IMG/VR virus record: IMGVR_UViG_2872164251_000006
Direction: 5' to 3' (one strand)
DNA from: a virus
Taxonomy: Duplodnaviria; Heunggongvirae; Uroviricota; Caudoviricetes
Length of the DNA stretch: 21,078 nt
Shown here: in pieces, positions 1-3,000 of the stretch
Layout of the letters: each line of letters begins with the position of its first letter
How positions within the stretch are numbered: position 1 is the stretch's first letter
Position numbers: made by a program

Positions 1-3000
1 ATGATGAAAAAAAGTATTCTGGCGTTTCTGTTACTCACCAGTTCTGCAGCGGCGCTGGCGGCTCCACAGGTGATAACCGTGAGTCGTTTTGAAGTGGGTA
101 AAGACAAATGGGCGTTTAATCGCGAAGAGGTAATGCTGACTTGCCGACCGGGTAATGCTTTGTATGTCATCAACCCAAGTACCCTCGTGCAGTATCCTTT
201 AAACGATATCGCACAAAAGGAAGTTGCCAGTGGGAAGACCAATGCCCAACCCATTTCGGTGATTCAGATTGATGATCCTAACAATCCCGGCGAAAAAATG
301 AGTCTGGCACCGTTTATAGAACGAGCTGAAAAACTCTGTTAATTACCTAAAATAGCCTTTTGATTTCCAATAAAAAAACCGCCTCAGTTCTTTCACCAGA
401 ACGGGCGGTTTTTAACATTTAAGCTGATGACCACCGCGCTTTTTATTGACCATTTTGCACGCAAACTGGAAAACCTGGCGTCGTCATCTATTCTTAAAGG
501 GCAAGGCAACTAAGCCTGCATTAATGCCAACTTTTAGCGCACGGCTCTCTCCCAAGAGCCATTTCCCTGGACCGAATACAGGAATCGTATTCGGTCTTTT
601 TTTAATTGTATTTAAAATCAATTAGTTGCAAACGTCTCCCCGAAATTCCCCGAAATTTACTCGAATTTCTGTATTCCGGTCTTTTTTGGTTATATCACAA
701 CCAAAATACATTTAACAATCCATTTACGTTAAAATCAGAGCAGTAAGTACGTTTTTTCTCTCTCATCAAGATACATTTTTGTTGTCTTCTCCGATGTGTG
801 GCCAAGTAGACGCTGAGCAAATTCTTCTCCACATATTTCTTTGTACAATCGTCCAGCCAGGCTTCTGATTTCGTGAAAAGTTGGTGGGTTTTCACTGAAC
901 AGGATACCTGTTAATTTTCTGGCTGCGACAAATTTCTTTGTCAGGCCGTCCGGGTGAATGCTGCCGTCAGGGCTGTTTTTTCTAATCCCGGCACTGATTA
1001 GATAATCCCCCCCTACTTACCATGCGGCACTGTTCAACTACTGCACCAAGTCGTAAACCAGCGACAGGAAGGCTGAGTGACAGGGGGATAGCAATCATCA
1101 TTCCTGTCTTAATTTGCCTGATGTGGAGACGATCATCATAAATATCACTGAACCGCATATTCGTTATGTCTTCGCGACGTTGTCCTGTTACAAGGGCTAA
1201 GTCCATAGCTAATGGGAACCATGCCGGAAGTTGATCTGCTGCCTCCCTGATGCAGTTGTATGTCTTTAGTTTCAGCCGTTCTCTTGTAACTACTATTTTC
1301 GGTGCTCTTGTTGGCGTTACTGGATTTTGAGATATACGTCCTTCAACAATGGCTTCGCGGAACATATCAGATAACACAGAACGCATTGATCCTGCCATCG
1401 TGTTTTTCCCTCCTTCAATCCACAAATCAAGAAACTCGGCGATATGGCGAGTGGTTATTTCTGTCAGTAAAACCCCTCCTAATTTTTCTTTTATTGTCAC
1501 CAGTTGATTTACCCGAGTTTTATAAGTATTTCTGGACGCTTTTCTCCTTATAAGAATCGTTTTGTAACGTTCAATCCAGTCTGCCATAGTAAATGAGTCG
1601 ACCCCTTTAAGCTTTTCAATTAGGGCAGCAGGAGAGTAGTTTTTGTATATATAATGATTTGCTTCAATTGCCTGCGCTACTGCATCTCTTCTTGAAATTT
1701 TACCTAGTGTAAATTCTTCTTTCGTCAGAGGGTTGCGCCAGTAATATGCTTTGTCTCTCCTTCGATATGTTAAGTTTCTAGGCAAATTGGGATCGTATTT
1801 TTTCCGCTGCATGTTTTAACTTCTCCATTAACGGACTGTCTCTCCCTTGTCGCCCATTAGGCTGATGGTGTGTTATATCGGTATCAACCTTATTTGGGTT
1901 GATATAGAAAGCCTCCGGAACCACCCTGTAACTCCTCCCGTGTAGTTCAGGTGCAGGATAAATGTTTCCATTCCTTGCCCATCGTCTCAGCGTTGATATT
2001 GATGGTGGGTTATCCGGATATCTGAGTTTTCCCCACGTTTTGAGTGTCACAAGATTCATTGCCATACCTCTCACGATATGACCGCCAGTAAATATACAGA
2101 ATACTGGCGGGTGTGGTTGATTTTTAATAATCTGAGGTGTACTGGCAATAGCGGACACTACCATTTGTTCTTTTTTTAAGCAGCCATCTGATGATATTTT
2201 TCCCTGAAGGCTGCCGGGGAGATATTCCCCAGACGAGAGTGACGACGCTGACGATTGTAGAAAATCTCAATGTATTCCCGTATTACTGAGATGGCTTCAT
2301 CCCGGTTATTAAAACGATAGTGGCTCAGGCTCTCATTTTTCAGCGTTCCCCAGAAGCTTTCCATCGGAGCATTGTCGTAACAGTTACCTTTACGAGACAT
2401 TGATGTTTTCAGACCAAACTGCTCCTGTATGACCCGGTAATCGTATGCGCAGTACTGTGAACCTCGATCAGAGTGGTGGATTAGCCCGGCAGGTGGGCGC
2501 TGGCTCCTGAGCGCCATAAACAGGGCTTTACCTGTCAGCTCTTTTGTCATGCGCTCTCCCATGGCGTAGCCGACAATTTCGCACGTATAAACATCTTTGA
2601 TGCCAGCGAGGTACAACCATCCCTCCTGTGTGGCAACATACGTCAGGTCCGCCACCCAGACCTGATTTGGTGCTGTAGGAGCGAACGTCTGGTTCAGCAG
2701 ATTTGGCGCAACTGGCAGATTGTGGTTCGGGTTCGTAGTCGCTCTGAACTTGCGTTTCTGCTTACAGCGTAGCCTCAGCTCCTTACGAAGACGTGCCAGT
2801 CGGTCACGACCAACGATGATGCCATTCTCTGCCAGCTCCGTCTGGAGCCGCCGGGTTCCATATGTTTCGCGAGTGCGGATATGTGCCACCTTAATCTCCA
2901 GTTTTAGCCGCTCATCACTTTGTTTTCTGTCTGAGGGTTCATGCTGTACCCAGTTGTAATAACCGCTCCTGGATACACCAAATACCTGACACATCGCTTC

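Follow-up and report, generated by a model that had tools for sequence, protein, structure and literature searches.

The IMG/VR virus record IMGVR_UViG_2872164251_000006 (Caudoviricetes) comprises 21,078 nucleotides of a Shigella-type genome (hereafter the window, that is, the whole stretch analysed) and carries near its left end the overlapping genes of two small RNAs (sRNAs), SdsR (also RyeB) and RyeA (also SraC), transcribed from opposite strands. SdsR is a conserved RpoS-dependent regulator with tolC and ompD among its reported targets, and is toxic if overproduced (PMC6610125, PMC3333887). RyeA is its cis-antisense antagonist; in Escherichia coli K-12, transcription of ryeA also limits read-through into pphA (PMC6610125, PMC3333887), which owes its transcription there to a heat-shock promoter located upstream of sdsR and to read-through of transcripts initiated at the sdsR promoter (PMC6610125). 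An earlier note on this DNA had proposed that, if a phage attachment (att) core lies in the SdsR terminator, the sequence beyond it (605-735), where the RyeA promoter would have to lie, is derived from a phage, and that the SdsR/RyeA pair could be rewired in carriers of the island. Its placement of both RNAs is supported by Rfam matches at 504-603 (plus strand) and 607-463 (minus strand). As the RyeA model begins at the SdsR terminator, it is silent on the true 5′ end of RyeA.

When positions 1-1100 were compared by megablast with 5426 complete E. coli genomes, 1-604 were matched in every one of them, and the sequence past 604, which leads into an annotated tyrosine recombinase gene, in only 228. 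The segment 605-735 was absent from the other 5198, and in 5191 of the 5426 genomes the junction between sdsR and pphA (the bacterial attachment site, attB) was uninterrupted, as judged with a 300-bp K-12 probe across the junction. Aligned with K-12 MG1655, the window was colinear to the SdsR terminator with two substitutions, and similarity ended after 604. Searching the window for the 3′ half of the terminator revealed a second copy at 18735-18751, in a region reading gacgaaaACAGGAATCATGTTCGGTCTCTTTTTAtctgttaaaagcc and followed by K-12-identical flank and then pphA. This right junction (attR) was carried by 228 E. coli genomes, the same number as for the left one (attL). The two 27-bp copies of the core (578-604 and 18726-18752) differ at three positions, and their spacing delimits an island of ~18.1 kb. 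The undivided phage site (attP) is held by the phage record PP818812 (47.5 kb), where the left arm corresponds to 18680-18725 of the window, the core is that of attL, and the right arm is 605-735, followed by the integrase gene; 605-734 is essentially identical to this arm. The distance between this attL and this attR is ~47.5 kb in E. coli FDAARGOS_943.

Because the match to K-12 stops at 604 and the attP of PP818812 has the same right-hand flank, 605-735 is phage DNA. Nothing was found to support the alternative, that 605-735 is ordinary chromosome with a native RyeA promoter in it; the segment is absent from 5198 of the 5426 genomes, nearly all of which keep the K-12-type junction, it is identical to a phage attP, and the native promoter is found elsewhere, at 18798-18803. 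A chromosomal origin is refuted, and the chance that this alternative is right is next to nil. Both premises of the earlier note thus hold: the core lies in the SdsR terminator, as confirmed by its recurrence in the attP of PP818812, and 605-735 is not identical to the sequence of island-free strains, since identity with K-12 ends exactly where the phage arm begins. With near certainty, 605-734 is the P′ arm of the attL of an 18.1-kb degraded lambdoid prophage carrying ipaH3, which entered the SdsR terminator by tyrosine recombination, with junctions, arm and displaced flank as listed in Table 1.

Table 1. Features of the window (21,078 nt) that bear on the sdsR/ryeA attachment site; Int, integrase; IHF, integration host factor; SNP, single-nucleotide polymorphism; ORF, open reading frame; IS, insertion sequence.
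Feature	Position	Strand	Remarks
yebY	1..342		Opens the window
RyeA/SraC conserved body	463..607	−	Rfam RF00101, 179 bits; antisense to SdsR
SdsR (RyeB) sRNA gene	504..603	+	Rfam RF00111, 118 bits; promoter and body chromosomal
Strand-exchange segment	578..588		From SNP pattern; contains the 7-nt terminator loop AGGAATC (579-585) between inverted stem arms
attL core	578..604		ACAGGAATCGTATTCGGTCTTTTTTTA; loop, 3′ arm and U-tail of the SdsR terminator; same 27 bp in the PP818812 attP
Phage-supplied SdsR terminator 3′ arm and U-tail	589..604	+	G to A turns a G·U pair into A-U; C to T lengthens the U run
Promoter-like match	605..632	−	TTTGCA-16-TACAAT; scan match, judged incidental
Predicted phage-derived RyeA leader in carriers	605..682	−	Would be ~78 nt, versus a 38-nt chromosomal leader in K-12
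Predicted IHF-type site	616..628	+	AATCAATTAGTTG; matches WATCAANNNNTTR; offset from the core shared by several families of P′ arms
Three tandem 10-bp arm-type Int repeats	638..668	+	CCCCGAAATT, CCCCGAAATT(T), ACTCGAATTT
Second copy of the right half of the core	671..687	+	GTATTCCGGTCTTTTTT; near-copy with T run, 67 bp right of the real core
Predicted RyeA start	~681-683	−	From the position of the candidate promoter
Predicted phage-borne RyeA promoter	689..718	−	−35 TTGTTA (718→713), 18-nt spacer, TG (697-696), −10 TATAAC (694→689)
Lambda-type tyrosine integrase gene (int)	735..1812	−	Pfam Arm-DNA-bind_1, Phage_int_M, Phage_integrase; +1 G at 1013
Excisionase ORF	1778..2164	−	Pfam Exc; abutted by an IS copy starting at 2133
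P arm of attR, right prophage end	18560..18725		Colinear with the PP818812 attP upstream of the core
attR core	18726..18752		ACAGGAATCATGTTCGGTCTCTTTTTA; K-12-type except A18735
Displaced native RyeA 5′ segment	18753..18803	−	K-12-identical; start ~18789-18791; −10 TATGGT (18803→18798); reads into the prophage
pphA	18886..19372	+	Truncated by an IS at 19373; 18.1 kb from sdsR and the heat-shock promoters driving pphA in K-12

The attP of the phage and the attB of K-12 differ at two core positions, which allowed the crossover to be located. Right of ACAGGAATCGT, attL has the phage-type bases (A589 and T598) and attR the K-12-type ones (G and C), with the left flanks reversed. Because the pattern switches there, the strands were exchanged within 578-588, so that the phage also contributed the 3′-terminal ~16 nt of SdsR (589-604). 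SdsR otherwise has the K-12 sequence, its only substitutions being A589 for G and T598 for C in the 3′ arm and tail of the terminator. A strengthening of the terminator hairpin by these substitutions was ruled out, the energy being −15.8 kcal/mol in the phage and the K-12 version alike and only the U run being longer. At the position of A18735, four of six other assemblies encoding an identical IpaH3 have G, so that A18735 is a SNP of this lineage. Between the terminator arms, GACCGAATAC and GTATTCGGTC, lies the loop AGGAATC; from this arrangement we infer that the arms act as inverted core-type sites and the 7-nt loop as the overlap region in which exchange occurs. The P arm together with the core was also considered as a terminator hairpin of the phage and dismissed, its fold being no better than that of shuffled sequences.

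The K-12 ryeA −10 element is TATGGT (the complement of ACCATA), and replacing ACCATA with CTCGAG abolishes RyeA (PMC6610125). According to the primers and fusion coordinates of that study, set on the K-12 sequence, RyeA transcription starts, at its most downstream site, 37-38 nt past the SdsR 3′ end, and the −10 element lies 46-51 nt past it. At attL, the equivalent position of the −10 element (~650-655) falls inside an Int arm repeat; the K-12 promoter and the 38-nt leader are not beside the RyeA body, both being found 18 kb off, at 18753-18803. With arm repeats at the equivalent positions of attL and the promoter at attR, canonical RyeA cannot be made from its own promoter. The earlier note was thus also right in that the position of the RyeA promoter is occupied by phage DNA, 605-735 sitting where the 5′ end and promoter of K-12 RyeA would be. 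By integration, the ryeA promoter of E. coli and the initial ~38 nt of RyeA came to lie at attR, from where the promoter would fire into the prophage end, toward the region of an Rfam CssrB match and ipaH3. ipaH3 (16429-18144), likewise on the minus strand, lies ~640 bp downstream of this orphaned promoter and has the same orientation. In 18100-18950, no terminator-like site was called on the minus strand; by eye, a hairpin at ~18425-18455 with a U-rich stretch might stop transcription from the orphaned promoter.

A degenerate version of the core was scanned for in IMG/VR and in one genome per GTDB species, which yielded at least 120 loci each. The matches listed, to which all counts of loci and flanks below refer, included Citrobacter, Enterobacter, Klebsiella, Kluyvera, Kosakonia, Pantoea, Brenneria and other genera. 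The arms found at the core, left and right, include dozens that are unrelated, which identifies the SdsR terminator site as a general hot spot of integration. The same arm plan appeared wherever an integrase homologue (47-80% amino acid identity) adjoined on the right. In the window, this plan runs from the core through the IHF-type site, the three arm repeats, the second half-core, and a box (GTTATATCACA, 689-699) to the int stop codon (735-737, minus strand). Three repeats of the CGAAA type were present at this offset in 59 of the 95 unique right flanks listed, and in every listed locus with an adjacent Int homologue; a related copy occurs in the P arm at 18582-18591. With its IHF-type site and three arm-type Int sites, the part from 605 to 670 would primarily serve recombination. 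The second half-core is kept as (G/A)TATTC(C)GG in diverged P′ arms and could serve as an additional Int site, or represent what is left of the int-stop region in a different phage family. On folding, 671-687 formed no convincing hairpin, and a role as terminator was ruled out, the fold being no better than that of shuffles.

In its order of elements, this int-proximal arm resembles that of phage lambda, whose attP/attL comprises a core with inverted Int sites, the IHF site H′, the arm sites P′1-P′3 and int next to attL, and the integrase of the window has the lambda-type arm-binding N-terminal domain (PF09003). Unlike in lambda, where the core is an intergenic site, the core is here the terminator hairpin of an sRNA, and the arm has two elements lacking in the P′ arm of lambda, the conserved second half-core and the promoter-like box. 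As in phage integration at the 3′ ends of tRNA and transfer-messenger RNA (tmRNA) genes, the target is a symmetric stem-loop, and phage DNA restores the 3′ end of the interrupted RNA (here SdsR 589-604). In contrast to tRNA and tmRNA genes, the sdsR locus is transcribed on both strands, so that restoring SdsR necessarily decapitates RyeA, for which the phage appears to bring a substitute promoter. Two database labels are at odds with the attachment sites beneath them. NZ_JBQPOM010000061.1, filed under the Firmicute 'Vagococcus sp. WN89Y', has an enterobacterial sdsR 3′ end with arm-type repeats and is probably a contamination of that assembly. PP818812.1 is labelled 'Actinobacillus phage vB_Apl-pPE4', yet it shares 97% identity with the int-attP region of E. 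coli/Shigella; as its attP targets the enterobacterial SdsR terminator, the host label looks doubtful.

In carriers of the island, antisense transcription over sdsR would most likely start from the box in the P′ arm. An extended −10-like element, TGATATAAC, lies there at 697→689, with the TG and the A at −11 present and a C at −7, and would place the start at ~682. It aligns with the proven −10 region of K-12 (TGTG-T-TATGGT in K-12, TGTG-A-TATAAC in the window). The pattern occurs in 82 of the 95 unique right flanks listed, compared with 7% of shuffled sequences. In 64 of these flanks, it lies at +80 to +89. The box also ranks among the best conserved blocks when 26 arms of at most 80% identity to each other are aligned. 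The candidate −10 element is 40 bp farther from SdsR than that of K-12; in Enterobacter/Lelliottia-type arms, this offset is 36 bp. Northern blots had revealed that the SraC/RyeA of both Shigella flexneri BS176 and Salmonella is ~35 nt longer than that of E. coli and peaks earlier, and a potential −10 box was placed ~35 nt farther upstream, with the 3′ end conserved (Frohlich 2012, PMC3333887). A start at ~682 and a leader of 78 nt, as predicted here, fit the longer SraC of S. flexneri. The resulting RyeA would be ~40 nt longer than in K-12 and would begin with a phage-derived leader. The box is probably an active RyeA promoter at attL. The account as a whole (a P′ arm of the ipaH3 prophage at sdsR, a displaced native promoter, and RyeA transcribed from the phage-borne box) is given a probability of roughly 0.7.

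Several points weigh against a promoter at 689-718. The candidate −10 element has a C at −7 in place of the normally critical T, the candidate −35 element (TTGTTA) matches at four of six positions, and a promoter scan, which requires T at −7, did not call the site. The conservation of the box could reflect another function, for example, that of an accessory site for recombination, and in one phage family the box is just the last codons of int. The start at ~681-683 is, for this strain, a prediction from the sequence, the S. flexneri strains of PMC3333887 may not carry exactly this junction, and the text and nine supplements of a differential RNA sequencing study of S. flexneri M90T contain no entries for ryeA, sraC, sdsR, yebY or pphA.

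If the P′ arm had no dedicated promoter, RyeA would be lost in carriers, or would arise only by read-through of minus-strand transcripts from int/xis or from an IS. No minus-strand terminator-like site separates int from sdsR, which, like the missing T at −7, speaks for this possibility, as does the precedent of the Salmonella phage PhiW104, where ryeA is decreased according to the account in PMC7380047. Yet the SraC of S. flexneri is a discrete band ~35 nt longer, with a −10 candidate at the matching distance (PMC3333887), the box is conserved in the non-coding P′ arms of diverged lineages, and, from what is generally known of lambda, little transcription of int is expected once a prophage is repressed or decayed. 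A P′ arm without its own promoter is thus considered unlikely, at odds that still deserve attention. Much less probable is transcription from the TTTGCA-16-TACAAT match, which would start at ~598, inside the complement of the terminator. This match (632→605) agrees with the consensus at 9 of 12 positions; against it, one such site was found where 1.1 were expected by chance, it overlaps the IHF-type site, its −10 element becomes TGCAAT in close relatives, and the RyeA it produced would be ~45 nt shorter than that of K-12, the opposite of the ~35 nt longer SraC of Shigella (PMC3333887). It was rejected for its chance-level occurrence, the overlap with the IHF-type site, and the wrong transcript length.

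From the ryeA −10 element on, the sdsR-pphA spacer of K-12 is significantly similar over ~65 nt to the last ~20 int codons of Enterobacter/Lelliottia-type elements residing at the same att site. The local alignment score of 25 compares with 10.3 ± 1.8 for shuffled sequences and was reached by none of 1000. Between the native K-12 flank and the P′ arm of the window, overall homology scored 12, a value reached by 310 of 1000 shuffles and thus not significant, only the short box being alike. The similarity to the int 3′ end suggests a phage origin of the ryeA promoter, and the K-12 spacer may be the relic of an ancient integration. That the RyeA promoter is a portable module of this integrase/att family, with the K-12 promoter as a domesticated remnant of an int 3′ end, is a tentative idea, and one more apt to fail than to hold. 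If it were true, each integration would decapitate RyeA and then re-cap it with a phage promoter and leader, and a phage origin would follow for RyeA, the antitoxin partner of SdsR.

A related rewiring is on record for Salmonella. The attachment site of PhiW104 (Balbontin 2008, as summarized in PMC7380047 and PMC3333887) lies within the last ~23 bp of ryeB, internal to ryeA, and integration replaces the 5′ portion of ryeA; in lysogens, ryeA is lowered and ryeB raised (Balbontin 2008, via PMC7380047). As far as these summaries go, PhiW104-type elements and the island have in common a hot spot of repeated insertion, an att site in the sdsR end, and the replaced 5′ portion of ryeA. The window, too, shows the marks expected of a prophage at this hot spot: a duplicated core from the sdsR end, an empty site with a precise junction in relatives, and an integrase gene at the junction. 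Unlike PhiW104, the element in this Shigella-type genome is decayed, dead in its integrase, and carries a type III secretion system (T3SS) effector gene, ipaH3. A single window, moreover, displays its two junctions together with the native promoter that was orphaned; the shift between ryeA and ryeB is reported for PhiW104 in the accounts cited. For Shigella, the main text of Frohlich 2012 (PMC3333887) ascribes the size difference of SraC to promoter variation between species and does not place the Shigella promoter in a prophage attachment arm. The rewiring is thus already reported for Salmonella and touched on for Shigella, and the finding, though correct, is largely anticipated. New here are the junctions mapped for an ipaH3 island of Shigella type, the finding of an orphaned promoter at attR, the family-wide box, and the similarity between K-12 and int 3′ ends. 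The orphaned promoter, the phage-supplied end of SdsR, and the prior publication on PhiW104 are three points missing from the earlier note.

For the circuit as a whole, SdsR would keep its RpoS promoter in carriers, and transcription of RyeA, now with a foreign leader, would depend on a phage promoter that is probably weaker. pphA is cut off from its promoters, and the host ryeA promoter is orphaned beside a virulence-gene island. From this layout, the balance of RyeA and SdsR and the expression of pphA are inferred to differ from those of island-free strains. A phage-borne promoter would offer a sequence-level explanation for the size and timing of SraC in Shigella. Results on SdsR, RyeA and pphA obtained with K-12 accordingly need checking before they are applied to Shigella or to the E. 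coli carriers of this phage (~4%).

The prophage itself is decayed. An alignment with int of E. coli FDAARGOS_943, which is intact and encodes 358 aa, shows that int of the window has a frameshift removing the catalytic C-terminus; with int broken by the additional G, the island is locked in place. Self-BLAST revealed three direct copies (99%) of one IS3-family element, at 2133-3396, 13851-15043 and 19373-20629, and a split inverted copy of it at 5070-5862 and 7173-7632. An ALIL pseudoknot (the frameshift signal of IS3-family elements; 120 bits) at 6721-6837 on the minus strand marks another IS between the inverted pieces. In two other assemblies, xis is followed by at most one IS copy and then by a DUF4376 gene and ipaH3, a layout that would fit the loss of ~10.5-11.7 kb of the island through an IS-mediated deletion.

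The product of the island ipaH gene is the IpaH3 of S. flexneri, Shigella sonnei and Shigella dysenteriae, and a perfect MxiE box, GTATCGTTTTTTTACAG, lies upstream of the gene at 18264-18280 (minus strand). The CssrB match (151.6 bits, 18273-18455, plus strand) starts inside this box on the opposite strand, and the hairpin closing it, which the P arm of attR has in common with the intact phage, also closes the last tail gene of PP818812. 'CssrB' therefore overlaps the ipaH3 promoter and the end of the late operon of the phage. A literature search for CssrB returned unrelated papers only, and the literature searched contained no paper linking ipaH with sdsR, ryeB, yebY or pphA. Elsewhere in the island, a full-length match (216 bits) to the antitoxin sRNA RalA at 3437-3615 indicates a rac-type RalR/RalA toxin-antitoxin locus, and four phage-borne tRNA genes (Met-CAT, Arg-TCT, Thr-TGT and Val-TAC; 12849-13156) lie just downstream of a gene resembling the Q antiterminator (11852-12640). 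Beyond the right junction, pphA is interrupted in the window; one other assembly with the same ipaH3 keeps a full pphA of 218 aa.

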